Below, one piece after another: positions 10,670 to 50,305 of a stretch of DNA of 64,000 nt. A program made the position numbers and the translations under genes. A model generated the notes under the pieces. That model ran no database searches. It was not told the origin of the DNA and saw nothing but the letters and a program-made list of their open reading frames with translations. The DNA is taken from positions 1 to 64,000 of the IMG/VR virus record IMGVR_UViG_3300019776_000521; one strand, 5' to 3'. The DNA comes from a virus. How positions within the stretch are numbered: the stretch's first letter is position 1; every line of letters starts with the position of its first letter.

Positions 10670-10696
10670 AGCCCTCTTATGAGGGCTTTTTTTTTT
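10670..10696 (+). terminator. intrinsic terminator
   Basis: AGCCCTC-ttat-GAGGGCT followed by a long T run. Confidence 0.85.
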
Positions 10697-10710: not shown

Positions 10711-11238
10711 ATGCGTTTAACCAACACAATCCGTGATGCATTTATTCGTGCAGCAATGAATGACGTTCCCTCTGTCGATTACGTAGAAGAAGTTCGGAAA
10801 GTTTTGACTGACGATACGATTGCTGGTTTACCTCAAGCCATCAAGGATATTGCCAAAGATCCTGTTCTATCTGGCTTCTTGCACAGTACATACGGTGGGT
10901 TTAATACCCGCATGTGCAGCGTCAGCTATATCGCTAACCGTCACCAAGAGCATCGTTTGAGCATGACAGCTCAAAAAACGGTCGATGAGCTGATAGCAAA
11001 GCATAAAGCGCAAACCGAGCAACGCAATACATTAAACGGAAAACTGCGTATTGCAGCCTATGGCTGCAATACCCGTAAAGCTTTGGTAGAGCTTCTACCT
11101 GAGTTTGAAAAATACCTGCCTGCTGATGAAGCCAAGGCAATTACCCAGAACCTTCCTGCAGTAGCCAATGTGCTGTCTGATTTCGTGAAAGCAGGCTGGC
11201 CTAAAAACCAACCCAAGATGCCCAAGGTCACACCATGA
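10711..11238 (+). CDS. Nmad5-like (nucleotide modification-associated) protein
   Basis: MRLTNTIRD start and NTRKALVELLPEFEKYLP resemble Nmad5 family from memory. Confidence 0.6.
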   Translation: MRLTNTIRDAFIRAAMNDVPSVDYVEEVRKVLTDDTIAGLPQAIKDIAKDPVLSGFLHSTYGGFNTRMCSVSYIANRHQEHRLSMTAQKTVDELIAKHKAQTEQRNTLNGKLRIAAYGCNTRKALVELLPEFEKYLPADEAKAITQNLPAVANVLSDFVKAGWPKNQPKMPKVTP

Positions 11239-37450: not shown

Positions 37451-40400
37451 TTACTTCACAATTGCCATCGCAGTGTGCACCGTAGCCAAGTTGTCCAGTG
37501 CACCAAAGTACTGGAAAGCTCCAGAGTGCAATGGATTGTTTCCAATGTGCTGCGTAAACGAACTATCCAGAACGATGGGTCCGAGTTCCATGTAATGATT
37601 CAGTGCAATGGCTGACAGTACACGGGCCGGGTTCTCCCTGGCCAGCTTCAGCAGCACCCGTTGAATGCGTAGGAAGTACTTGGTAAATGGCGTCAGGCCC
37701 ATGTCGTCCGTGTACTGCAAACCACGGTGCATCGGGATGTCGTAGTTCACAAAGGCATCCGACGCTTCCTGAATTGCAGCTTCACGGCTCAACGGGTTCG
37801 TGCCCCTGCTCACCAGGTGCTGGTACAGCGTGTACCGAGCCACGAAGTCCGACAGCTGTGTAATGCGGCTCAGAGTCTGGTACATGTTGGTGTCATGCGT
37901 CATGTACACCGCCCTGCCTGCAGCACGAATCTTGGGGTTCAGCCTGCTGGTGAACTTCTCCGTCTTTCTCACAAACTCACTCTTGTACGAGTAGATGTTT
38001 TCCTCAGCAGCAAGATCTTCCACGATCGTAGGCATCAGCCCTGCTTCAATCAGTTCCTTGACCGGATTCCTAGCAATCGCGTCTTTCAAGCGAACGATTT
38101 CATCCTTAATTTCCTTTTCCTTACCCAGTCCGTAATCGACCTCCAGCATCGTCTGCAGATCCGCCAAACGCTGGCTATCTCTCTGGTATGCCGTAGCACC
38201 TTTCAACGCCACCAGGTGATGCTGCAATACGTCCTTCAACGACACGCCTGACATGGCAAGCAGCGACAAGTTCGACCAGATGTTCCCAAGCATCACAAAG
38301 CCAGTCTTGACCACAATGATGTCTTTGGTCTCGGCTACCAATTCCTGCCATGCACGTTCGCCCCTGGTGATCACTACGGCTGCTCTCTTGGCGTAATCCT
38401 CTGCGTCAGCTGCAGACAAGCCATGCCGCATGCCTGCGTAGTTTGCAAGCACTGTCTGCACCACATACACAAACAAGCCTTCCAGCTTGTTTCGTGCATC
38501 AGGATCCTTCTGGAACATCGACGCCAAAGTCAGCTTGCGATACCCAAACATGATGTCCAGTGAATCGCTGCGCACCTTCATGCCGTCCCTACCCCACACT
38601 GCCCTGATGTCTTTCTTCGTAGCATCAGGCAGTAAATCCCAGATCGCACGCATCTCAGGATCAGTGCTCCGATCGCCAACTTCAACGTAAGAATCCTTGC
38701 GGGTTGCGTACTCCAGTTCGTACTGTTCACGCAATACAGTGACTGCTTTTTTGTTCTGTTCCCGACTGGTCTCCTTGTCGTAGATCGAACCAGCAATCAC
38801 ACCGATCAGATTCTCAAACCTGTTGTCCCGCTCAAGCAGGTTGTCCTTGGTGGACTCAGCCATCATGTAGCGCCAGTTCACGATCGCACCTGTCTCGTTG
38901 TAGACAGGAATCATGTGGTTTTCTCTTTCAGCTGACAGATCCCTACGCGGATCACCCATACCTTGCATAGCAGCCAGCTTTTCGTTGGTGATGGTCGCTT
39001 GCATGCTTGCATTCTCAAGCCCGTTCAGCGTGTTCACGTTTACGTAGCCGCTGTGCTTTTTGCTGCCCCTAGACTTCATGCTGGACAAGGAAAACGCACC
39101 CGAAAGCCAAGGAGACAAGCCACCGTCCCTGAGCACGTAGATTCGCTTAGTTTCGGTATCCGGGTCAGCACGATCGTTAGACACCAGTGCGCCTGCCGAG
39201 TAGCCCTGGTTCACAAGCTCCTTGCCTTCTGCCTCGGTAGCAATCTTGATCGCTGTATGCGGGTTTAGGATCTCCGGCGTGTAGCCATGGATCATCAGCG
39301 CAGGATTGCCTTTGAACAACCGTTGTAGCGACTCCTCTTCCAGCTGCTTGTGCAGCTTCAACAGGAACTCAACACCGTTGCCATTGTTATCAGTTCGACT
39401 GTTTTCAGTCCTGAAAACTTCTTTGGCTTGGCTCAAGTGGTCACCTGCTGTGTACTTCAAGGCGTACAAAGAGATCAATGCTGCAATCACAGGCTCTGCC
39501 TGTTTTGCTTCAGCCTCAGAGATCTGCCGCTGGTACTGAGTGTTGGCCATCCTGGAGATCAAGTGTGCATTGAGCATCAGCACAGGAATTCTGGCTCGTC
39601 CAGTTGCTTTGAAGTAACCCAAACCATTGATCTGTTCGATGTACTTGTCTTTGTATTTAGAGGTCAGCTGAGACTCAAAGTTTTCAATGGCTTTGTCTAC
39701 TGCCTTGTAATCCCCAACCAGCTTCTCCAAATCAGCAACGCTGTAGTGATTCAGCAAGTTGTGCAAACCAGTTCTTAGAAACACAGCAGACACTGCAGCT
39801 TTGGCTTCCTTGCTCATTGCTTTGCCATTCTGAAACACGCTCAGCACAAGCTTCGAGTGCTGCGTGATGATGTTCTTGCGCTCACCTTCATGGCGCTTGG
39901 TTTCACGCAGCAGAGCATTGAACTTGTCCAACGGTCCCTTCAGTTCATTGAGCAAACTTGCTGCAATGCCTTGCCTGCCTTTGAACTGCTGATCACGAAG
40001 AATTTTCAATCCGTCAATCACTTGCTCCACCCGATCATTGGCAATGGTTCGAGCTATGCCCCCTGCTGCTTGAACAAACGCATTGCCGTTGTTACGAACA
40101 AATGACGAACCAGCAAGGTCACCTGCTTTTTCCCGGATGCCATCTGCCAGCGCTTTGACGCCTCTTTCAACTGGTTCAAGAATGCTGCGCTCTGTTGCAC
40201 GCTTCTTGATGAGCACTCGCTTTTTGGCTTCGATGTCCACCAGCTGGCCAACCAACGCTTCCAGCTTGGCGTCAGCGTTCTGACCAGCGTAGGTGTGCGT
40301 GAACTTCTCATTGAAGAAATTCAAAATGCGCTCAAAGATGCTTTCGAGCTTCTCGGTGAACGTCATGTCCTGGGCTGCTTTGCGTGAAGCAACCTTGGTT

Positions 40401-43400
40401 GCTCTTTTCAACAGCGTATTGAACTTTTCGCTGGCCAGGCCCAGGGCTGCAAATCGAGCCAGGTAATCCGAGCGATCGCCGTTGTTGCTCTCCAGCTTGA
40501 ACACAAAGTCGTAGTCTTCCTGGGACGCAAAATCCGATGGCTTGAGCGTATTGCGCATTTCAAGGTACAGATCAGCCAGCTGCTTGTAGGCAATCTTGGT
40601 TTGGGACTCGTTGCCGTTCAACGCTGCCCGCACGGTGGCTTCCACCTGCTGCATGGCAAAGTCTTCCTGTGCACTACCTGCAAACCCAGACGCCACAATC
40701 GATGATGCAAAGGGAGCGTTGCCTGTTTCCATGGCTTTGAGCCATACCGCCAAGGGATTGCCTGCCTCGGTCTTGCGCATCTGCTCTGCAAACGCACCAA
40801 ACGGGCCGTGGAGCTTCTCTACGATGCCACCCAGTAGGTTGGCCAGGTGCTCCTGGAACGAAGGCTCTACGGAGCCATTGGCCAAGGCGTTGTGGATGTC
40901 CAGGGTCGTGTACTTGTCGATCTGCTCGACGGTCTCCTGAGCAAGGTTCAGGTCGGCGTTGCTTGTCTTCTTTGCTTGAGCCGCTTCCGCAAACAATCCC
41001 GACACATTTGCAACCAGCACAGCCATGCCGTTGTTGAGATTCTCGTCAGGCTTTTTGAACAGCAGTTGCGTCAGCGTAGCGATGAACTTCTTCATGCCGG
41101 TGATCAGCGAGGTGCTGCCGGTCTTGGACTCCATGGTGATCTTGCTCAGCACATCACGCTGCAGGCCCAGGTTGGTCATGCCCCAAGCCACGAACTCTTG
41201 AACGTTGGCCAAAGCTGCCGTGTAGTCGTTCAGTCCGTTTTGCTTTGCATACTCTTGAGCCTTGACCCGCAGAGCTTCAAGCTCAGCCACCAGTGCTGCT
41301 GCTTCGCCGGTTGGCTTGTCGATCACCCGTGCAATCGCTGCGTGCACCAGTTCATGCAGCAATGTTTCGGCTGTCAAACCAGAGTTCTGAAACTCTGGAC
41401 TGAGTACGTAGATTTCCTCCTGGCCATTCTTGACGACGTACCACCCACGGGAATTGGTTGTGGGCTTTTCCAGAACCATGCTTTCCGCTGTCTCGGATGT
41501 CACAAACTTGATCTTCAAGTCAGGGCTAACCACCCGACTGACCAAAGCCAGGATCTTGCGATTGATTGCATTCATCCGTCCAGGTGCACCAAGCAGTGCA
41601 ATCACTTGGGACGCCGAGGCATTCGGATTGGCTTTGAAAAACCTGACCAGATCGCCATCACTTTCAATCTTTGGCGTACCGATTGGTCCAAACAGACTAT
41701 CGGCAGTAGCAACAGGCTTCTCGGTTGCAGGAGCAGGCTTTTCGGAAACACTCATGCCCAGGGCTTCAGAGATGATCACAAGAGCTTCTTGTTCCTTGGC
41801 AGAAAGCCCCTCTTTCAACGCAGACTGCATTGCTGCAGCATCACTACGATCGGCTTCGGTGACTTCGTAATTGCCACCTTCGAGTGCGTACTGATCAACC
41901 GAACCCATCTGGCTCAATGCTTCAAGACGCACACTGTCTGCGCTGAAAGCCGTGCTTGTTGCGTTTTGCAGCATGTCGCTCAGCACCGTGTCAGGGCTCA
42001 TCTCGTTCTCACCTGCAAACTTGTTCAACGCTTGCGTGAGATTCTCGACAACCTGAACAGGAAGATCCTTCTGAGCCAACAGCTCAGACAAGCCAACAAC
42101 CGTGCGAGACAACATGTTCGCCATCTCCGTTGCCGGAGAGTAGTTCAGCAGTGCACTCCAAGTAGCTTGATTCAGGTTCTGTGCTGTCTGACTAAATCCG
42201 CCCAAACCAGATCCATGAGCATCATGGATGTTTAGCACTTCATTGCCATCTGCAGCGTTGTGTGAGATTGCAGAGTCCAGCGAATGCGTGGACATCACGA
42301 CCATTGCTACGCCAGGATTGCTTTCGATCGTTTCAAACGCAGTAGCTTCGACCGATGATTGCTCAACGTAGCCGCCTTTCTTCTTGCTCCAAACCTTGGT
42401 TCCTTTGATTGCAGAACCAAACTTGACATTGCTTTTGAACGTGCTGCGAGTGCTGAGCTTGCGGCTTGATTTCGATGCAAACAGGCCAGCACGCAAGGAA
42501 CCACTTTCCTTGGACATGAGCGTGTGCATCACAGGAGCAAGCTTGCTCACTCGTTTCTTGAGTTCTTCCTGCTGCTTGAGTGTCAGATCGTGAATCGGAC
42601 GGTTCTTGCTATCTACTGCAATTTCACCAGACGCCACCAACTCAGCCAGGTACGCATCACGCAAGCCCATGTACGCTGCGTTGTACAGCTCGAATGAGAA
42701 CTGAGCACTCTTGTTCAGTGCATCGCGTTTGCTGATGAAATTGCCAAAGTCAGCGGACATTGTTTCCGACACTGCTTTGCCCAGCGTGTTCTTGAAGCTG
42801 TTCTTTAATGCCTTGATCTGATCTGAATCAAACTCGTAAGCAAGCAGCTTTTCCACAGACATCAATGAAAGCTTGGCGCCATCACCACCCCTCAGCAATA
42901 CATTGATGTTGTTGATAGTGGCTCGAATATCTGCTTTGCCTGCAGCCACATCTTCCATGCTGGAGTAGATGGATTCAATAAAGCCATCGGCCATGCTGTC
43001 TACAGCCGAACCAACAGAGGAGCCAAAGATCATCGCCGTCAAAGGCGTCTTGATGATGTTTCGACGCTTCTTGAGAATCTCAGGTGTCTCAAGAGTCAGA
43101 TTCCCGGTAAACGCATACACAGCGTTCAAAGTTGCACCAATCTTGCTGTCTTTCAGCAGCATCTTCTGCACGGCATTCGTCATGTGCAATGCAGTGATCT
43201 CGTATAAATCTTTGGCACCAGGCTTACCACGCCAAACGTTGTAGTTGGTGTTGGGATTGCTTTTCTCGAAGAACCCACCACGATTGAGCAAGCCAAACAA
43301 ATCCTTCACAGACTTTGCTGCACCAAGCAGGATATGGCTCAGCATGGGGCCATTGGTTACCCCGTCTACCTCGCCCATCATCTGAACGGAAAAGCTGTTC

Positions 43401-46400
43401 TTGCCATCAAGCTGCGCTTGTGCTTCCGTAGCCAAAGCCATCAGTGCATCCAGCGAATGAAAATTCATTCCGCCTTTCTTGACTCCAGCAAGCAGGACTT
43501 TTCCTTCTTCTGAAGTGATGCCACCTTCAAACACTGTCTTGCGCAACACTGCTACAGCGGCTTTGATCTCCGGCTGATTGACGTAGGATTCATAAGCAGC
43601 CAACGAAGTCTTGTTGGCTTGCTTGTCTGTCTTGACTCCCAGACCTTCAAGAACCCTGAGCCGAAAGTTGTCCATCTGATCGGCATTGCCCATATCGACC
43701 ATCGTGGTCCATGCGTTGCGAAATAGCATGAAGCGATGGATCTTGCTGGTCTGCGGATTGATGACGTTGGTGGCAATACCAACTCGTTGCTGCTTCCACA
43801 CCGAATGCTCAAAATACATTGGAGCTTCGATGTCAGCCATGCTTTTGACAAACTCCATGAACCTATCCAGTTCACGAAGCAGCCCATCGTTCTTTGCCTG
43901 CAAACCTGGCTTGTTGACTGCATGAGTTTTGGTGTCGGAAATCTCAACGACACCTGCAATGCCTTGAAGCACATCGTCACCAAGCTGCGTGATCAGCTGC
44001 CACATGTCTTGCCGCACATAGTTGGCTTCTGCATTCTTGGCAGCAACAATCTTTGCAAGCTTCTCCGGTACGTTCTGGTTGGTGTTGCGTGTCTTTTTCT
44101 GCACAAACGGAACTGGCTCAAGGCTGGGTTCCTTCAAACCAGACTCTACTGAAAACAGCTTGTCGAGCACTCCTTGCGAACCAATGGATGCCTTGACGAT
44201 CCGCTCTGCATCAGCAGGCAAAGTGCTCTGCGCATTCCTGGCAAGTTTGACGAAATGAAATTCTGCGTTCGTGTTCGTGCTTTCCTTGTTCGTCAACGCA
44301 GCCATGGTCTCACCTGAGACTGTTGACCTTTCAAGCAGTCCTAGATCCATCATCAACTTCCATGCATGTGCACCCAGGGAAGCTTCCAGGTCAGGCATCA
44401 GATTGACTGGGGCATCCTTCGACACTTTGAAACCAAGCGCCTGTACAACTGCTTGGCCAAGCGAGTTGCGCACCAGGTTTTCCCTTACGCCTACGTTGCC
44501 GAGCACCATGCGTTCAGCTTGCGAGACGCTGACAGTTTCATCCCGATCGAGAATCGCGTTGATGTCTTCGTCAGTGTTGTACAGATTCTTGGATGCAGCT
44601 TCTGCAACCCAGCTGAACACTGCATAGCTGATTGCAGTCTTCACATTCTGATCAACATCTAGCTTTCCATCGTTCTCTTGGATCAGGTACTGCATCATGT
44701 CTTCGTACCGGAACTCTTTGGTACGAGCACTCAGATTCTTTTGAATCAACCCTTGCCATTGCTGGTTCAGTTCTTGAAACAGCTGCAGCACTTCTTGCTG
44801 CTTGCCGCTGAGAGACTTGATGCCAAGGAAATCCAGAACATTCTGAGCACCCTGGCTCAGGAAGTTTTTCACCTTCACTAAAGGCCGCTCAGTCAGATCG
44901 CCTTCACGACTGGCTTGCTGAGTGAAGAAGTCTGCAATGAGGTTACGAAGAGGAAACGATGTCCCCTCCGTGGACTTTTCCTGAAGCGTCGTAACAGCAC
45001 CAGGCTGCGTAGACAGTGCACTTGCGACCTCTTCAGAAACTGGAACAACCTCTGAAGGGGTCGTGCTAGTCTGCTCAGTAGACTGCAGTTGACCTTGATT
45101 TGTCTCAGGAGACGCAACAGTTGTCCTAGTAGAGCCGGAGGCTCCTACAGACGCAGCAGGCTCACCCGAAACACTTTCTACGGTTTGTCCAGCGGCGGAT
45201 TCAGTTGCTGCGGTTGCTGGTACTGAGGGGTTGACGGCTCCTCCTTCAACTCCTCCGGTCGGCTGACTCGTACCTGCTTCAGTCGAGGGCGCAGTTTCTG
45301 TGCGATTCGGACTGGCTTGTAATCCTTCGAGTGTTTGCGATACGTTCGAGACATTACTGACTCCATTGGAAATAGGTTGGGCAAACTTCAGCCCGTAGGC
45401 TGCTCGAAGCTCTGTTGCCGCCTTGGTCAGTGCATCCGATTCAATCTGAATGTTATCAACAATTTTGGTGCTGTTCCTGACAATATCCAGGCCACCATTT
45501 TGCTGACGTTCTTTTTGACTGGGCCATTTCCCAGTTTCAATCGACCAGCTTCCATTGCCATCACTAACAATGCGCCGCTCCTGCCCGTCTTTCTCAAACA
45601 GGGCTTTTGCTTCAGCAGCCACTTGTGCTTTCTGCTGATGGTCGCTGACAAAGTTGTCCAGCAGCTGCAACTGCGCAGTAGCGGCTTTTGAGTTGTTTGC
45701 TGCCAGTGCAGTCGTGACATTGGCTCGGTATTGCTGAATACCGATGTTCCCTTTGCCGCCATAGAAAACCTCCTTCGAGACCTTATCCATGGTCTTGAGT
45801 TGGTTCTCTGCTTGCCGTGCTTGCGTGAATGCCCGCAGGTAGCCCCGCTGCGGGTCCGTCAGGCCGTTTGTCGTGTCATTGGCAAGCGACGCAGCCAGGT
45901 TGGTATCCAGGCGCTCTGGCGTGGCCATAGACAGGTTGATGATGCTGTCCGCTGCAGCCTGTGAAGCTACCGGATCAGCAGCAGTGATCTTTGCAGCCTC
46001 AGCTTCTACATCCAGCTCCTTGGATTGGTTTTCCTGATTGAAGTTATTCAGCACCTCCTGAGCTGATGCAATCTGCTCATCAAGCCGAGAGATCTGCTTT
46101 TGCAACCTTGGACCAGCGTCTGTCTCCTTGGCCAGGGTTGCAAGTTCAGCTTCCAGAGCATCGACGGTAGGCTGATCTCCAGCTTCTCTGGCTTGAACCA
46201 GTTGAGCCATGTAGCCAGCCACAGCTTCAGGCGAGATAGAAGCGTAGTTTTCTTCTGCTTTTTGTTTCTGCTCAAGCAGATCAGACACGATGCCCGATGC
46301 CTGCTCAAACTTTGCTTGTTTCAGTTCGGGCGTAGCGGTCGGCAATTGGCTGTGGCCATACAAAGCCGATACAGCCTGATCTGGGGCGTAGGACGGGCTT

Positions 46401-47647
46401 TTGGGATCCAGGAAGGTAGTGACATCACCTGAGACAATCGCAGCTTGTAGGGCTTCTGCTTTCGTTGCGTCGGCTACTTTCTTTTCAAATTTAAGCAGAG
46501 ACATTTCGGATGCAGACTTCAAAGTCTGAATACCACCACCCATGATTCCGCCCATGAAGGCACCCTGACCAGCAGCAGCACCAACGCCATCAAAAAGCTC
46601 TTGTGCTGGCTTAATCTCCTTGACTGCAGAATTTCCAAAATAGCGTCCGCTACCCTCTTCTATTCCTTCCTGCCCAGCTTCTCCAACAAATGCTTTGGGT
46701 ACAGCAACAAAACCACCTGCTTTCTTGCCAATCAGAGCTTTCTCAATTGCAGTACCACCAGGAAGTGCAGAAGAAAACAACGAAACTGCTCCTGCTTTAA
46801 GCGTAGCTTCTCCGGCCAACTGCGATGCAATAGCTTGCTTGGCTTGTTGAGGACCAAGGCTTTCAGCCAAAGCTACATACTCAGGGTTTTGATCCCAAAC
46901 AGCATCAGGCAACGACATCATTCGCTGCATCGTGTCTGAACCAACATCGACACCTTGCAACACAGCGCCCGTACCAACAGCAGCAGCTGTGCCACTCTTT
47001 TCCACAGCAATCTGTCCGGCTTTGGTTGCTGCAACTTTAGGCAGTGTTTTGGCTGTAGCAGCAGCAGCTAGTTCAGCACCACGACCTACTTTGCTCATCA
47101 CTCCCAGTTGCGCTGCTTGTTGAGCCAAAAACTCAGGAATGCTTCCTGGGTCTTTTGCAGCTTCCCAGAATGCAGCACCAAACTCTGCAGCAACTTGCCC
47201 AGCTACACCTGTTACGCCATCACCTAAAGCTTCCCGTGCTGCTTTGCCCGCTTTGCCAGCAACCACTGCTTTTTCTTGATTTTTGGCTTGAGCAAAAGCT
47301 GATTTCAGTTTTTCTCGTTCATCAGACATTTTGCTGATGTCTTGTGTTTCAGGCCCGTACCAATCACCAGTGGTAGCTTTGTCGTAAACCATCGCTGGCA
47401 ACTTGGCCAGTCCATCGATACCTTGAACAGCTGACAAAGCCAAGTCTTTTGTGTAGTCCCCCCACGACCTACCTTCATCAATGGCTTGATCTCTGGCTAC
47501 TTGCGCAGTGTTTTGCGCCAACGCTTGCCGGTAAGTTTCCAAGCCAGCAAGCTTCTCTTGACGAGCTTGAAGAATTTGATCAATCTTTTCAGGATTCGGC
47601 GCACCATACTTTTGAAGCAAATACTGATCAACATTGAAGGTGGCCAT
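37451..47647 (-). CDS. virion RNA polymerase (N4 gp50-like), about 3398 aa
   Basis: Start MATFNV; no Cys seen; EVDGVTNG, RNIIKTPLTAMIFG, IHDA; synteny. Confidence 0.95.
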   Translation of the reverse strand: MATFNVDQYLLQKYGAPNPEKIDQILQARQEKLAGLETYRQALAQNTAQVARDQAIDEGRSWGDYTKDLALSAVQGIDGLAKLPAMVYDKATTGDWYGPETQDISKMSDEREKLKSAFAQAKNQEKAVVAGKAGKAAREALGDGVTGVAGQVAAEFGAAFWEAAKDPGSIPEFLAQQAAQLGVMSKVGRGAELAAAATAKTLPKVAATKAGQIAVEKSGTAAAVGTGAVLQGVDVGSDTMQRMMSLPDAVWDQNPEYVALAESLGPQQAKQAIASQLAGEATLKAGAVSLFSSALPGGTAIEKALIGKKAGGFVAVPKAFVGEAGQEGIEEGSGRYFGNSAVKEIKPAQELFDGVGAAAGQGAFMGGIMGGGIQTLKSASEMSLLKFEKKVADATKAEALQAAIVSGDVTTFLDPKSPSYAPDQAVSALYGHSQLPTATPELKQAKFEQASGIVSDLLEQKQKAEENYASISPEAVAGYMAQLVQAREAGDQPTVDALEAELATLAKETDAGPRLQKQISRLDEQIASAQEVLNNFNQENQSKELDVEAEAAKITAADPVASQAAADSIINLSMATPERLDTNLAASLANDTTNGLTDPQRGYLRAFTQARQAENQLKTMDKVSKEVFYGGKGNIGIQQYRANVTTALAANNSKAATAQLQLLDNFVSDHQQKAQVAAEAKALFEKDGQERRIVSDGNGSWSIETGKWPSQKERQQNGGLDIVRNSTKIVDNIQIESDALTKAATELRAAYGLKFAQPISNGVSNVSNVSQTLEGLQASPNRTETAPSTEAGTSQPTGGVEGGAVNPSVPATAATESAAGQTVESVSGEPAASVGASGSTRTTVASPETNQGQLQSTEQTSTTPSEVVPVSEEVASALSTQPGAVTTLQEKSTEGTSFPLRNLIADFFTQQASREGDLTERPLVKVKNFLSQGAQNVLDFLGIKSLSGKQQEVLQLFQELNQQWQGLIQKNLSARTKEFRYEDMMQYLIQENDGKLDVDQNVKTAISYAVFSWVAEAASKNLYNTDEDINAILDRDETVSVSQAERMVLGNVGVRENLVRNSLGQAVVQALGFKVSKDAPVNLMPDLEASLGAHAWKLMMDLGLLERSTVSGETMAALTNKESTNTNAEFHFVKLARNAQSTLPADAERIVKASIGSQGVLDKLFSVESGLKEPSLEPVPFVQKKTRNTNQNVPEKLAKIVAAKNAEANYVRQDMWQLITQLGDDVLQGIAGVVEISDTKTHAVNKPGLQAKNDGLLRELDRFMEFVKSMADIEAPMYFEHSVWKQQRVGIATNVINPQTSKIHRFMLFRNAWTTMVDMGNADQMDNFRLRVLEGLGVKTDKQANKTSLAAYESYVNQPEIKAAVAVLRKTVFEGGITSEEGKVLLAGVKKGGMNFHSLDALMALATEAQAQLDGKNSFSVQMMGEVDGVTNGPMLSHILLGAAKSVKDLFGLLNRGGFFEKSNPNTNYNVWRGKPGAKDLYEITALHMTNAVQKMLLKDSKIGATLNAVYAFTGNLTLETPEILKKRRNIIKTPLTAMIFGSSVGSAVDSMADGFIESIYSSMEDVAAGKADIRATINNINVLLRGGDGAKLSLMSVEKLLAYEFDSDQIKALKNSFKNTLGKAVSETMSADFGNFISKRDALNKSAQFSFELYNAAYMGLRDAYLAELVASGEIAVDSKNRPIHDLTLKQQEELKKRVSKLAPVMHTLMSKESGSLRAGLFASKSSRKLSTRSTFKSNVKFGSAIKGTKVWSKKKGGYVEQSSVEATAFETIESNPGVAMVVMSTHSLDSAISHNAADGNEVLNIHDAHGSGLGGFSQTAQNLNQATWSALLNYSPATEMANMLSRTVVGLSELLAQKDLPVQVVENLTQALNKFAGENEMSPDTVLSDMLQNATSTAFSADSVRLEALSQMGSVDQYALEGGNYEVTEADRSDAAAMQSALKEGLSAKEQEALVIISEALGMSVSEKPAPATEKPVATADSLFGPIGTPKIESDGDLVRFFKANPNASASQVIALLGAPGRMNAINRKILALVSRVVSPDLKIKFVTSETAESMVLEKPTTNSRGWYVVKNGQEEIYVLSPEFQNSGLTAETLLHELVHAAIARVIDKPTGEAAALVAELEALRVKAQEYAKQNGLNDYTAALANVQEFVAWGMTNLGLQRDVLSKITMESKTGSTSLITGMKKFIATLTQLLFKKPDENLNNGMAVLVANVSGLFAEAAQAKKTSNADLNLAQETVEQIDKYTTLDIHNALANGSVEPSFQEHLANLLGGIVEKLHGPFGAFAEQMRKTEAGNPLAVWLKAMETGNAPFASSIVASGFAGSAQEDFAMQQVEATVRAALNGNESQTKIAYKQLADLYLEMRNTLKPSDFASQEDYDFVFKLESNNGDRSDYLARFAALGLASEKFNTLLKRATKVASRKAAQDMTFTEKLESIFERILNFFNEKFTHTYAGQNADAKLEALVGQLVDIEAKKRVLIKKRATERSILEPVERGVKALADGIREKAGDLAGSSFVRNNGNAFVQAAGGIARTIANDRVEQVIDGLKILRDQQFKGRQGIAASLLNELKGPLDKFNALLRETKRHEGERKNIITQHSKLVLSVFQNGKAMSKEAKAAVSAVFLRTGLHNLLNHYSVADLEKLVGDYKAVDKAIENFESQLTSKYKDKYIEQINGLGYFKATGRARIPVLMLNAHLISRMANTQYQRQISEAEAKQAEPVIAALISLYALKYTAGDHLSQAKEVFRTENSRTDNNGNGVEFLLKLHKQLEEESLQRLFKGNPALMIHGYTPEILNPHTAIKIATEAEGKELVNQGYSAGALVSNDRADPDTETKRIYVLRDGGLSPWLSGAFSLSSMKSRGSKKHSGYVNVNTLNGLENASMQATITNEKLAAMQGMGDPRRDLSAERENHMIPVYNETGAIVNWRYMMAESTKDNLLERDNRFENLIGVIAGSIYDKETSREQNKKAVTVLREQYELEYATRKDSYVEVGDRSTDPEMRAIWDLLPDATKKDIRAVWGRDGMKVRSDSLDIMFGYRKLTLASMFQKDPDARNKLEGLFVYVVQTVLANYAGMRHGLSAADAEDYAKRAAVVITRGERAWQELVAETKDIIVVKTGFVMLGNIWSNLSLLAMSGVSLKDVLQHHLVALKGATAYQRDSQRLADLQTMLEVDYGLGKEKEIKDEIVRLKDAIARNPVKELIEAGLMPTIVEDLAAEENIYSYKSEFVRKTEKFTSRLNPKIRAAGRAVYMTHDTNMYQTLSRITQLSDFVARYTLYQHLVSRGTNPLSREAAIQEASDAFVNYDIPMHRGLQYTDDMGLTPFTKYFLRIQRVLLKLARENPARVLSAIALNHYMELGPIVLDSSFTQHIGNNPLHSGAFQYFGALDNLATVHTAMAIVK

Positions 47648-47687: not shown

Positions 47688-47712
47688 AAAAAGCCGGGAG
47701 TTACCCGGCTTT
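47688..47712 (-). terminator. hairpin/terminator upstream of vRNAP
   Basis: AAAGCCGGG-agtta-CCCGGCTTT with A run on left (T run on minus strand). Confidence 0.65.
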
Positions 47713-47714
47713 GA

Positions 47715-49679
47715 TTATTGCCTTGCTCTAAACACTGGTGGATAAACAGGATTGGGGTCTTTCCACAAGCCACGCTTTTCTTTACGTGCAGTGTTTTCTG
47801 CAATGTTGAGATCAACGTTCCTGAGAGTTTGCTGCGCAAACGCTTTGTACACCCAAGCTGCACCTTGCTCTACCATGGCATGGTCAAGACCTTTGCCTTC
47901 AATCTCAACCTGACAAATAGATCTACCGGCGTACTTGCCATCAGGACGAACAATTCTGATGTTCACTTCTTTGTTGAGAATCAGCTCTTCCAGACGTTTC
48001 TTCGATTCCTCTCCAAACGGCTGACCATTTTTGTTGTACTGCTTCTTTGCAGTCTCCGGTGCGTCGATCGTATCTATCCTGCAGTTGATTCCGTTTTCAG
48101 AAGAAAACGTGTCTCCATCAGCAACGTAGCTAACTACTGCTTTTACCCCGGTGCCTTTTGGAATAGCACCAGGAGCAGCTTTTACTGCGCTGACTGGTTG
48201 CTTCCATTTGACATCTTTGGGTAGCTCTATCGGATCAGTTTTAGCTACCGGAGAACCATTGACAGGATTGAGAGCAAAGCCAGTCGAATCAGCTACGGCT
48301 GGCTTTGATTTTGACGAAGTAGAAAAACCGCTGTTGAAGCTAACAGCAGCTGGAGCCTCAGTTACCTCTTTTTTTTTTTCCGGTGCGCTTGTTTCAGCTT
48401 TTGCACTGGAGATAGCTCCGTACCTCTGAAATTCTTCGATCAGCGGATCAACGGCCAGAGTCTGAGGAACATCAATCAGACCACCTCGTCCAACAATCCT
48501 CTGTGTTGGTCCACTAACCTTTGGTTTAGGCAGCAGACTTTCAATCTTCTTATCAAAGCTGTCAGCGTAACCTTTGCTACCAAACCAGTTGGTATCAACT
48601 GAAGAAAGCAAAGCCGATTTCACAACACTAAGCGGAACAGGTACGTTGACTGTAATCGGCTTTCCATCTTCACCAATGGTAGTCCGAGTGATACCATTTT
48701 TGGCAAGATTGGAAATTCTTTCCATCAGGTATGCACGACCGTTGCTGTCGTCTTTGCCACCAATTCCGTTAGTCTTTGCAATGGTAGCAAGCTCTACAAG
48801 ACTGTCTGGAGTCAGCAGCCCACCTTTGTACACGTTGTCTTGTAACGCAAGATCTAGCTTCTTGACGTTTTGAGCAGCAGCACGTTCACGCTCTGCTCGG
48901 TCAGCAGTCAATCTTGAAGCGTTTGTTGAAGCTTCTGAAGCACTGATGCGGGCTTGTATTTCTTTTCGAACCAAGTCGGCATTGTTAACTGTGTTTTGAA
49001 GACTTTGGTTATCAAGACCAGCTTTGGTAACAGCAAGAGGTCGCAGCAAAGCACGTTGTGATTCTTCTGTGCCTCGACGAGTTTCTTCTGCTACTCGGCG
49101 CTTCTCTTCTTCAGTATCAAAACCAAACCTTGTTGAAGCACGATCTCGTTCTGTCAGAGTCTGCTGCCGCGTATCGATCGTCTTTGCCAGGTTCACGGCT
49201 TCCCGCAGATCAGGTCGAGCAGCCAGCATCTCGCCTGCACGCTTTGGATCCTGCAAAGCCATGAGGTTGATCGCACGAACGTCTGCTTCCTGAGCAGCAT
49301 CCAGCATCGTGTTCTTGTACGTGATGCCTTGAACGTCACGCTGCTGGAGCGTATTAACGCGCCCATCACGAAGAGCATTCACTGCAGCCCGATCAATCAC
49401 AGCGCCATTTGCAGCAACAGCTTGATCCAGTGCACCAGACCTGTTCAAAACGTTGAACTGGTCCACGTTTTCAGCTTGATAAATCTTGCTCAACGCATCT
49501 TGCGTAGCAGCTTGATCTTGTCGTTTCCACAAAGCCTGATCGAAAGTATCGCTTTCTTTGAGAGTGCTTTTCAGGCTGTCAAACGCTCCAGCAAAAGCCT
49601 GTTGCGCATAAGCAAGCGGACGACTGGCATCTGCCAGGGAAGGTCCGGTAACGGTACGCCAAGTGATGGGGGTAGCCAT
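47715..49679 (-). CDS. N4 gp51-like ejection protein with C-terminal thermonuclease (SNase) domain
   Basis: PITWRTV start typical of gp51; DGDT, RIDTIDAPE, KYAGR, GAAWVY, ARKEKRGLW. Confidence 0.85.
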   Translation of the reverse strand: MATPITWRTVTGPSLADASRPLAYAQQAFAGAFDSLKSTLKESDTFDQALWKRQDQAATQDALSKIYQAENVDQFNVLNRSGALDQAVAANGAVIDRAAVNALRDGRVNTLQQRDVQGITYKNTMLDAAQEADVRAINLMALQDPKRAGEMLAARPDLREAVNLAKTIDTRQQTLTERDRASTRFGFDTEEEKRRVAEETRRGTEESQRALLRPLAVTKAGLDNQSLQNTVNNADLVRKEIQARISASEASTNASRLTADRAERERAAAQNVKKLDLALQDNVYKGGLLTPDSLVELATIAKTNGIGGKDDSNGRAYLMERISNLAKNGITRTTIGEDGKPITVNVPVPLSVVKSALLSSVDTNWFGSKGYADSFDKKIESLLPKPKVSGPTQRIVGRGGLIDVPQTLAVDPLIEEFQRYGAISSAKAETSAPEKKKEVTEAPAAVSFNSGFSTSSKSKPAVADSTGFALNPVNGSPVAKTDPIELPKDVKWKQPVSAVKAAPGAIPKGTGVKAVVSYVADGDTFSSENGINCRIDTIDAPETAKKQYNKNGQPFGEESKKRLEELILNKEVNIRIVRPDGKYAGRSICQVEIEGKGLDHAMVEQGAAWVYKAFAQQTLRNVDLNIAENTARKEKRGLWKDPNPVYPPVFRARQ

Positions 49680-50305
49680 TATTTCACTCCGTTGCGCTGC
49701 ATGTAAGAGCCAACAGACTCATACGCACCAGGATTGGATGCCACACGCGCTTTTTGCCGATCTTCCAGAGAAGAATTTGTGGTGGTCTTTTGAGCTTCAA
49801 AGTTGCGTTCAAACTGCGACTTGCTGTTTTCAAAAACGTCTTTAGCCAGGTTGTACTGCTGCATGCCCATGTACAAGCTTCCAAGACCTTGAGCTGCACC
49901 AAGTGCCAAACCACCCCAGCCCTGCTGATCGCGTGAGCCAAGAAACCCGCTGTCTCGAAGGTAGCCGGTAATGCCTCCTCCACCGCTCCCAGCTGAAGAA
50001 AAGTCTCCCCATGCGCCAGGAATGCTGTTTGCACCAAAGATGCTGGTTCCATCCAATGCTTGCTTGGATAGCGGGCTGACCATGTTGACCGGATCGTTGG
50101 GCATCATGGCTGGCTGATTGGTGTAGCCACCCCAGTCTCCCCACGCACCAGGAACAGAATTGGCACCAAACGAATTGGTGCCATCCATGGTGTTTTTCTT
50201 GAACGTCTGCTGAGGAGTGAGCAATCGTGGATCGACTCGGGGAGGCAAGTAGTCCATTCCATAACTTCCAGAACCCATAGGCTGGTAATCGTATTTGCTA
50301 GGCAT
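49679..50305 (-). CDS. N4 gp52-like ejection protein
   Basis: Gly-rich TM-like region; NSSLEDRQKARVA; synteny. Confidence 0.75.
   Translation of the reverse strand: MPSKYDYQPMGSGSYGMDYLPPRVDPRLLTPQQTFKKNTMDGTNSFGANSVPGAWGDWGGYTNQPAMMPNDPVNMVSPLSKQALDGTSIFGANSIPGAWGDFSSAGSGGGGITGYLRDSGFLGSRDQQGWGGLALGAAQGLGSLYMGMQQYNLAKDVFENSKSQFERNFEAQKTTTNSSLEDRQKARVASNPGAYESVGSYMQRNGVK

Follow-up and report, generated by a model that had tools for sequence, protein, structure and literature searches.

Frameshifting occurs in phage structural genes such as that of the T7 capsid (10A/10B), in addition to the tail chaperone gene of phage lambda. In the latter, a -1 shift near the 3' end gives a minority of a virion-related protein (G) a C-terminal extension (GT) (PMC5009743). 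The closest parallels for the present work come from the dnaX genes. That of Thermus contains a run of nine A (A9), and transcripts of the templated length specify the long protein while others meet nearby stops, about 50% of the product being short, whereas that of E. coli combines an A AAA AAG heptamer with a stem-loop and is recoded by a ribosomal -1 shift (PMC1088944, PMC5009743). In phage N4, gp51 is ejected; twelve copies lie round the portal, a decameric periplasmic tunnel forms after ejection, and gp51 is proposed to extend with its C-terminal end to the inner membrane (PMC13434306). Here we examine a run of eleven A (A11) in the gp51-type gene of an uncultivated N4-like phage. The window, by which we mean the whole stretch analysed, comprises positions 1 to 64,000 of the metagenome-assembled IMG/VR virus record IMGVR_UViG_3300019776_000521 (73,555 bp, rated complete). 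The run lies where the gp51 core gives way to a linker and a staphylococcal-nuclease-like (SNase) domain, and we think it probably allows gp51 to be produced both with and without this nuclease.

The locus resembles Thermus thermophilus dnaX in having a sense-strand A-run of at least nine within an open reading frame (ORF) that is long by default, with stops close by in the other frames (A11 in the window, A9 in its relatives L037, L039 and L044). It differs in encoding a phage ejection protein rather than a clamp loader, in placing the run at the point of domain fusion and, for the window, in being known from sequence alone. A second group of relatives, which we call the short design, resembles E. 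coli dnaX: the in-phase heptamer is the same or an equivalent one, and a stem-loop lies 5-6 nt beyond it. Here too, as among dnaX genes, the ribosomal route seems to serve some homologues and the run-length route others. This mirroring of the E. coli and Thermus pair by the two gp51-nuclease designs leads us, by analogy, to take A11 as a probable recoding site. The shift in E. coli dnaX produces a shorter protein, whereas a -1 shift in the short design would give a longer, nuclease-bearing product, as in lambda G/GT; unlike lambda G/GT, the protein concerned is an ejected tunnel subunit and its extension an enzyme. The window as assembled is not of the E. coli type. An A AAA AAA heptamer is in phase within its run, trivially, a stimulatory structure of the dnaX kind some 5-9 nt downstream is absent, and the -1 frame stops after three codons, the nuclease lying in the zero frame instead of in a -1-frame extension.

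The A11 run and its sequence context

On the + strand the run appears as eleven T at 48369-48379 with C on either side; the minus strand is coding, and reads in frame CCG GAA AAA AAA AAA GAG GTA ACT GAG within an ORF of 654 amino acids (aa) at 47715-49679. Our analysis confirmed this reading, which a first-pass annotation of the DNA had given, together with its claim that either shifted frame ends cleanly. A sequence with 10 A reads GAA AAA AAA AAG AGG TAA and stops after two sense codons (product of 438 aa), and one with 12 A reads AAA AAA AAA AGA GGT AAC TGA and stops after three (440 aa).

Only two homopolymers of at least eight nt are present in the 64-kb window, namely this run and the T10 of an intergenic terminator. 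Among the 15 long ORFs tested it is the sole coding A or T run longer than six, the other 14 having none. AAA makes up 37.3% of Lys codons (265/711), and the other three KKK tripeptides in these ORFs are written in a mixture of AAG and AAA; the A11 run is contrary to the codon usage of the genome. Near-identical DNA for the gp51-SNase gene was sought by megablast in the phage collection, without a match, and a search of viral contigs with the flanks of the run separated by a variable gap also matched nothing (the window's own record was perhaps excluded from that set).

A 10-bp hairpin beyond the run was considered as a frameshift stimulator or terminator and rejected. The fold 3' of the run has a predicted energy of -17.7 kcal/mol with a z score of -1.42, and terminator-like sites, of which the scan found 5 with this hairpin included, were no commoner than in shuffled sequences (3.6 +/- 1.6).

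Position of the run at the gp51 family's C-terminus

Sixty whole-protein homologues of the window protein (P0001) are 396-533 aa long, and each covers at most 67% of it. An alignment of the core family (A1) shows each of its 28 relatives finishing with a short tail of Lys/Arg residues (for example ...APAPSTKRK or ...PSGKKK), aligned with PEKKK of the window, and the closest core relative, P0002 (77% identity), ends ...PEKKKKK. On this alignment the run is placed exactly at the natural C-terminus of the gp51 family, which bears out the core/linker boundary assigned in the first-pass annotation. Because the basic tails of the relatives coincide with PEKKK, the slip products ...PEKKKR and ...PEKKKRGN would both be canonical gp51 proteins. 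Two further searches with P0001 added no relatives. A tblastn search of the phage collection matched three records, none of them N4-like and none matching the gp51 core, and a scan of viral contigs with the whole protein found no relative.

A survey of gp51-nuclease relatives

The linker and nuclease module was searched against 1.84 billion representative proteins, giving 8823 matches, of which the best 150 were inspected. These 150 include 37 proteins of at least 550 aa with the ..ITW.. motif of the gp51 N-terminus and a C-terminal SNase domain, and many of the others are 'stand-alone' ORFs of 200-260 aa beginning MT.P.... From these sequences the gp51-SNase fusion is a recurrent architecture. 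The junction carries [EQ]KK[SN] in 12 of the 37 fusion representatives (mostly as EA[EQ]KKSP) and GKKKS or SKKKV in another three (3/37).

DNA loci were drawn from IMG/VR (6) and from metagenomes (80), with L004 and L005 added from a scan with the gp51 core. In six of the 80 metagenome loci (L041-L046) a gp51-type gene is joined to the nuclease. Seven were set aside (L055, L058, L061, L062, L090, L104 and L105) because their long upstream ORFs lacked the gp51 N-terminus and/or the heptamer, and the other 67 were left uncounted, having either no long upstream ORF that meets the nuclease frame or an upstream stretch that is in frame with it (L064, L094, L102). Across the 32 complete gp51 3' ends recovered by the core scan, an A-run of six is found in L004 and L005 only, the other 30 having at most five. 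At one locus, L040 (= L011), the nuclease (2397-2819) is offset from gp51 into the +1 frame, in an overlap with neither a slippery run nor a heptamer; this offset may reflect a sequencing frameshift, recoding of another kind or decay of the gene.

Short-design relatives have the anatomy of a programmed frameshift

The short design comprises eight loci (L004, L005, L035, L036, L041, L042, L043 and L045) with seven distinct junctions. In all eight, gp51 stops in frame (TCA AAA AAA GCG AAG TGA, for example), the SNase is encoded in the -1 frame, and an in-phase A AAA AAA, A AAA AAG or C CCA AAG stands exactly 6 nt before the TGA. The trans-frame junction predicted for a -1 shift, KK|SEVT or KK|SPVT, is the one that the in-frame fusions have (AEKKSPEV and the like). 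A two-tier stem-loop starts at a conserved GTGAC, 5-6 nt past the heptamer, and has 18 consensus pairs, 10 of them with compensatory changes. Pairing holds in 89.7% of cells, against 74.9% in shuffles (0 of 500 as good) and 40-52% when the partners are slid, and single sequences fold with z scores of -3.3 to -4.3 at six of the seven junctions, L043 giving -1.73. Judged from these features, the anatomy is that of a stimulated -1 programmed frameshift. A consistently placed Shine-Dalgarno-like element was sought upstream of these junctions and not found.

The 'MT.P' starts chosen by gene callers are the GTG ACN of the conserved GTGAC, and the nuclease ORFs annotated as separate 'MT.P..' genes are probably trans-frame extensions of gp51. 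Termination and reinitiation at the conserved GTGA overlap is an alternative that we rank below frameshifting: it accounts neither for an in-phase heptamer at a fixed distance of 6 nt nor for a stem-loop that buries the GTG, and it leaves unexplained why the trans-frame junction should match the in-frame fusions.

Long-design relatives carry an in-frame A-run

In the window and in L037, L039, L044 and L046, which together form the long design, gp51 and the nuclease share one frame. The junction of the four relatives is CAA/GAA AAA AAA AGY, an A9 run and the only A-run of at least six upstream of the SNase core in those ORFs. Stops follow within 1-4 codons of A9 in both other frames of these loci, with differing codons (TAG, TAA, TGA). 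The window TAA is aligned with the gp51 stop of the short design (the TGA within GTGAC), and also with the TAG or TAA that L044, L039 and L037 have in that frame. As in the window, no strong structure follows the run in L044 (z -0.94), which fits a run-length mechanism needing no stimulator.

An [EQ]KK[SN] junction yields A9 when its codons are GAA or CAA, AAA, AAA and AGY, as they are at the 4/4 loci with DNA; the all-A codons were seen at the DNA level in L037, L039, L044 and L046, the other fusions being known as proteins. A degenerate search of viral contigs for EA[EQ]KKSPE[VI] in any codons returned five matches, one a true gp51-SNase junction (the L039 contig) and four unrelated. The GAG GCT (E-A) codons before A9 in L037, L039 and L044 create a Shine-Dalgarno-like GAGG 3-4 nt upstream of the run. 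L046 (381-1376), closely related to L039, shares its A9 junction but has a gp51 core broken by a mid-gene frameshift; it probably represents an error-prone older assembly, or a pseudogene.

Two proposed products from one gene

On balance, these comparisons incline us to think that the A11 run as assembled serves the expression of two products, a short gp51 and a nuclease-bearing ('armed') one. Standard decoding of the 11-A template would give the 654-aa gp51-linker-SNase fusion as the long, default product, the window having the features of the long design in a stronger form (A11). RNA polymerase reiterating on a run of at least nine A would generate mRNAs with 10 or 12 A, and these would encode short gp51; alternatively, ribosomes might shift by +1 or -1 on the Lys codons, with the same result. 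The sequence does not separate polymerase from ribosome as the slipping agent. After either slip a stop would follow 2-3 codons on, leaving a gp51 of 438 or 440 aa whose ...KKKR ending corresponds to the canonical basic C-terminus of the family. The twelve or so gp51 copies surrounding the portal would then be a mixture of plain tunnel subunits and nuclease-bearing subunits ejected into the host. The anatomy of the sequence, the position of the family C-terminus, the two designs among relatives and the covarying stem-loop of the frameshift type are shown here; slippage in this phage, the ratio of the products, the presence of both in virions and the role of the nuclease are parts of this picture that we infer. 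A rationale for mixing may be that a folded 16-kDa domain on all twelve copies would hinder packing or tunnel assembly, and the target of the nuclease may be host or competing nucleic acid at entry.

More broadly, and tentatively, since we rate it at a little under an even chance, the C-terminus of this ejection-tunnel protein may carry a clade-wide, interchangeable recoding switch that doses enzyme warheads on about 12 subunits, by a frameshift in some phages and by an A9-A11 run in others. Phages with the stem-loop would make short gp51 by default and arm it by a -1 shift, and phages with the A-run would have the opposite default. The warhead would be the nuclease, joined in some relatives by a cell-wall hydrolase. 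The window lineage itself probably descends from the short design, as its nearest module relatives, P0220 (70% identity) and P0224 (61%), are of the 'MT.QPP' kind.

Weighing the alternatives

The extra A that separates the window from a short-design junction may have arisen by genuine mutation, may be a variant within the population, or may be an artefact of assembly. The most serious competitor to dual expression from A11, although we consider it unlikely, is that the true or majority genotype has 10 A, with gp51 stopping in frame, a -1 shift on A AAA AAG extending a minority of chains with the nuclease, as in the short-design relatives, and the eleventh A an assembly or sequencing error or a minor variant. 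The record is a metagenome assembly, in which a one-base homopolymer error is possible. A 10-A version would be gap-free and colinear with L004 in both frames (CCA AAA AAG CAG AAG TGA; KK AEVT in the -1 frame), and a -1 shift on it would give exactly the PEKKKEVTE that is read from 11 A. P0220 and P0224 start MTPQPP or MTAQPP, the start that gene callers give to short-design ORFs, and the closest core relative, P0002, stops at its K run. For the P0220 cluster and for the gp51 protein P0009 (C-terminal VKKQK) alike, the longest contig recorded measures 7204 bp, an unproven hint that they share it. Yet all 7/7 short-design junctions place a stem-loop 5-6 nt past the heptamer, where the fold of the window is weak, and the window linker, although homologous to those of P0220 and P0224, lacks some 17 of their residues at its beginning, exactly where P0220 encodes the stem-loop. 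The Val codon of the window is GTA, as in the in-frame L044, and not the GTG of all short-design loci; its stop would fall 3 nt past the heptamer instead of 6; and having a stop in each of the other frames is the hallmark of the long design. The missing stem-loop, the deletion of about 17 residues, the GTA codon and the two-frame stops favour a real change of design. If a 10-A genotype is counted along with the 11-A one, that the site is a recoding site of one polarity or the other becomes quite probable.

Several observations weigh against recoding at A11 and would suit a plain in-frame fusion, in which the run is three Lys codons left from an ancestral C-terminus or frameshift site, slippage is noise and the 654-aa protein is all that matters. 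Neither [EQ]KK[SN] nor KKK is found at the junction of 22 of the 37 fusion representatives, and the in-frame fusion L038 has no run there, which indicates that a wholly armed gp51 is viable and the run not universal. The long-design DNA amounts to four loci and three distinct junctions, L039 and L046 being close relatives. Of the 603 codon boundaries in the gp51-SNase gene, 24 (4.0%) are followed by stops within three sense codons in each of the two other frames; the pair is modestly unusual, and weak evidence taken alone, and one of the two, the TAA, may be a vestige of the ancestral gp51 stop. What a plain fusion leaves unaccounted for is a run contrary to codon usage in a set of 15 ORFs with no other coding run above six, the recurrence of A9 with flanking stops, in differing stop codons, in the in-frame L037, L039/L046 and L044, and the fact that either short product reproduces the canonical C-terminus of the family. 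A-runs of at least nine are, moreover, generally selected against in coding regions as slippage-prone (PMC1088944). We regard a plain fusion as improbable, rather more so than a 10-A genotype. Conservation of the run and its stops in homologues, which the first-pass annotation had named as a check, is accordingly mixed, with A9 at 4/4 loci of the EKKS type known as DNA and the exceptions just given. That annotation had also proposed that slippage makes armed and unarmed gp51, through recoding or through phase variation. The recoding form has gained strong comparative support from the position of the C-terminus, the A9 relatives with their stops, and the frameshift heptamers and stem-loops; the phase-variation form found no specific support. 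Under the latter, replication slippage would toggle the genome between 10, 11 and 12 A and whole lineages would be armed or unarmed, with no mixing within a virion. A homopolymer of 11 nt should be prone to mutation, closely related proteins are not alike here (P0002 ends KKKKK where the window reads through), and both designs are present among related phages. Nevertheless, the conserved RNA stem-loop of the short-design relatives argues for recoding at the level of expression, and a 10-A variant would still make some fusion through A AAA AAG, leaving the states not cleanly on or off; we therefore think heritable phase variation very improbable.

Novelty and implications

Full-text searches, whose reach did not extend to subscription journals and supplements, found no published account of recoding or of a nuclease fusion in the ejection proteins of N4-like phages or Schitoviridae, and a conserved gp51-nuclease recoding junction in two interchangeable designs, as these sequences suggest it, appears undescribed. 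If true, it would give dnaX a second natural counterpart in which homologous genes alternate between the ribosomal and the run-length route, and, as far as the searches show, no recoding event in a Schitoviridae ejection protein would have been described earlier. The gp52/gp51 tunnel of N4-type phages conveys proteins, among them an RNA polymerase of 3,400 residues. Two versions of gp51 at a set ratio would allow a phage to control how many enzyme cargoes (nuclease, peptidoglycan hydrolase) are carried without blocking assembly of the tunnel, and would offer a simple route for injecting an enzyme at the first moment of infection. One junction built either as a frameshift cassette or as a poly-A run would also be a natural comparison of recoding mechanisms in terms of ratio, cost and evolutionary switching.

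A second cargo lies between the gp51 core and the nuclease in some relatives. P0231 is annotated with PF01832 (glucosaminidase) in addition to PF00565, and P0072 at L037 (654-3092; P0065 is also listed there) has the GQWGLETGWGKS motif of P0231, its A9 junction standing ahead of both domains. The N4 ejection proteins are seemingly without a peptidoglycan hydrolase, as noted in PMC13434306.

The gene, its nuclease and its neighbours

The features of the locus are collected in Table 1. Upstream of the gp51-SNase gene are genes for gp52-like and gp53-like proteins, the major capsid protein and the portal, and downstream is the virion RNA polymerase; the neighbours match PHROG families (virion RNA polymerase, major head protein, portal) in N4 order, and P0001 fills the gp51 slot between the gp52-like and virion RNA polymerase genes, as do N4 gp51 and DEV gp72. 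The profile of the core family (A1) matches DEV gp72 (chain 8vxq_R, E 1.1e-8) over the N-terminal half only, positions 1-229 against residues 1-221. On synteny and profile similarity the gene is that of an N4 gp51/DEV gp72-type ejection protein of an N4-like phage, fused to SNase. N4 gp51 has 644 aa, with no nuclease mentioned in the available part of PMC13434306, whereas the window protein combines a core of about 437 aa with the SNase.

Table 1. Coordinates of the A11 run, the gp51-SNase gene and adjacent features in the window
Feature	Position	Strand	Basis or remark
A11 run (GAA AAA AAA AAA), proposed slippage/recoding site	48369..48379	-	homologous position is A9 in L037, L039, L044 and L046; in-phase heptamer in the 8 short-design loci
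TAA stop for 10 A or a +1 shift (...PEKKKR, 438 aa), 2 sense codons past run	48362..48364	-	
TGA stop for 12 A or a -1 shift (...PEKKKRGN, 440 aa), 3 sense codons past run	48358..48360	-	
10-bp hairpin with T-rich stretch (TTTTTCT), inside linker coding region, 17 nt past run	48326..48351	-	weak, not significant
gp51-type ejection protein-linker-SNase fusion (P0001, 654 aa)	47715..49679	-	ORF, translation, synteny, DEV gp72 profile match
gp51 core, residues 1-437, ending E434 K435 K436 K437	48369..49679	-	basic tail aligned with PEKKK in A1
Low-complexity linker, residues 438-533 (about 95 aa)	48081..48368	-	codons read
SNase domain, residues 534-641	47757..48080	-	Pfam PF00565, E 8.6e-20, 71.6 bits (cut-off 21)
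Intrinsic terminator right after SNase stop	47690..47712	-	
Virion RNA polymerase (gp50-like), probable start ATG 47647	37451..47647	-	phrog_2206, E 5.9e-52; exactly one, terminal stop in frame
gp52-like ejection protein gene	49679..50305	-	phrog_2646; stop shares one base with gp51 ATG

As in staphylococcal nuclease, the metal-binding and catalytic positions are kept in a domain that matches PF00565. Alignment to chain 1f2m_A retains DGD, R, D.PE (as R..D.PE) and GR, the corresponding columns are invariant or nearly so in alignment A2, and we take the conserved positions to be D21, R35, D40, E43 and R87. Unlike the free secreted enzyme, the window SNase, whose activity is predicted, lacks a signal peptide, and a long linker joins it to a virion ejection protein. 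A reading of the codons between the run and the SNase core found no in-frame ATG, GTG or TTG, which implies that the nuclease is made only as an extension of gp51; a separate nuclease gene in the window was rejected on the same ground.

The terminator after the SNase stop is almost identical to one at L003:3765-3790, about 35 nt past the gp51 stop of that nuclease-less locus. [quoted passage not shown] For the virion RNA polymerase (3398 aa), ATG 47647, downstream of this terminator, is the likeliest start; the GTG at 47863, at the head of the longest polymerase ORF, falls within the nuclease gene and makes an improbable one. Elsewhere in the window, the T10 homopolymer provides the U-tract for a clean intrinsic terminator (10670-10696, + strand; AGCCCTC TTAT GAGGGCT, then T10), in noncoding sequence ahead of an ORF that starts at 10711.

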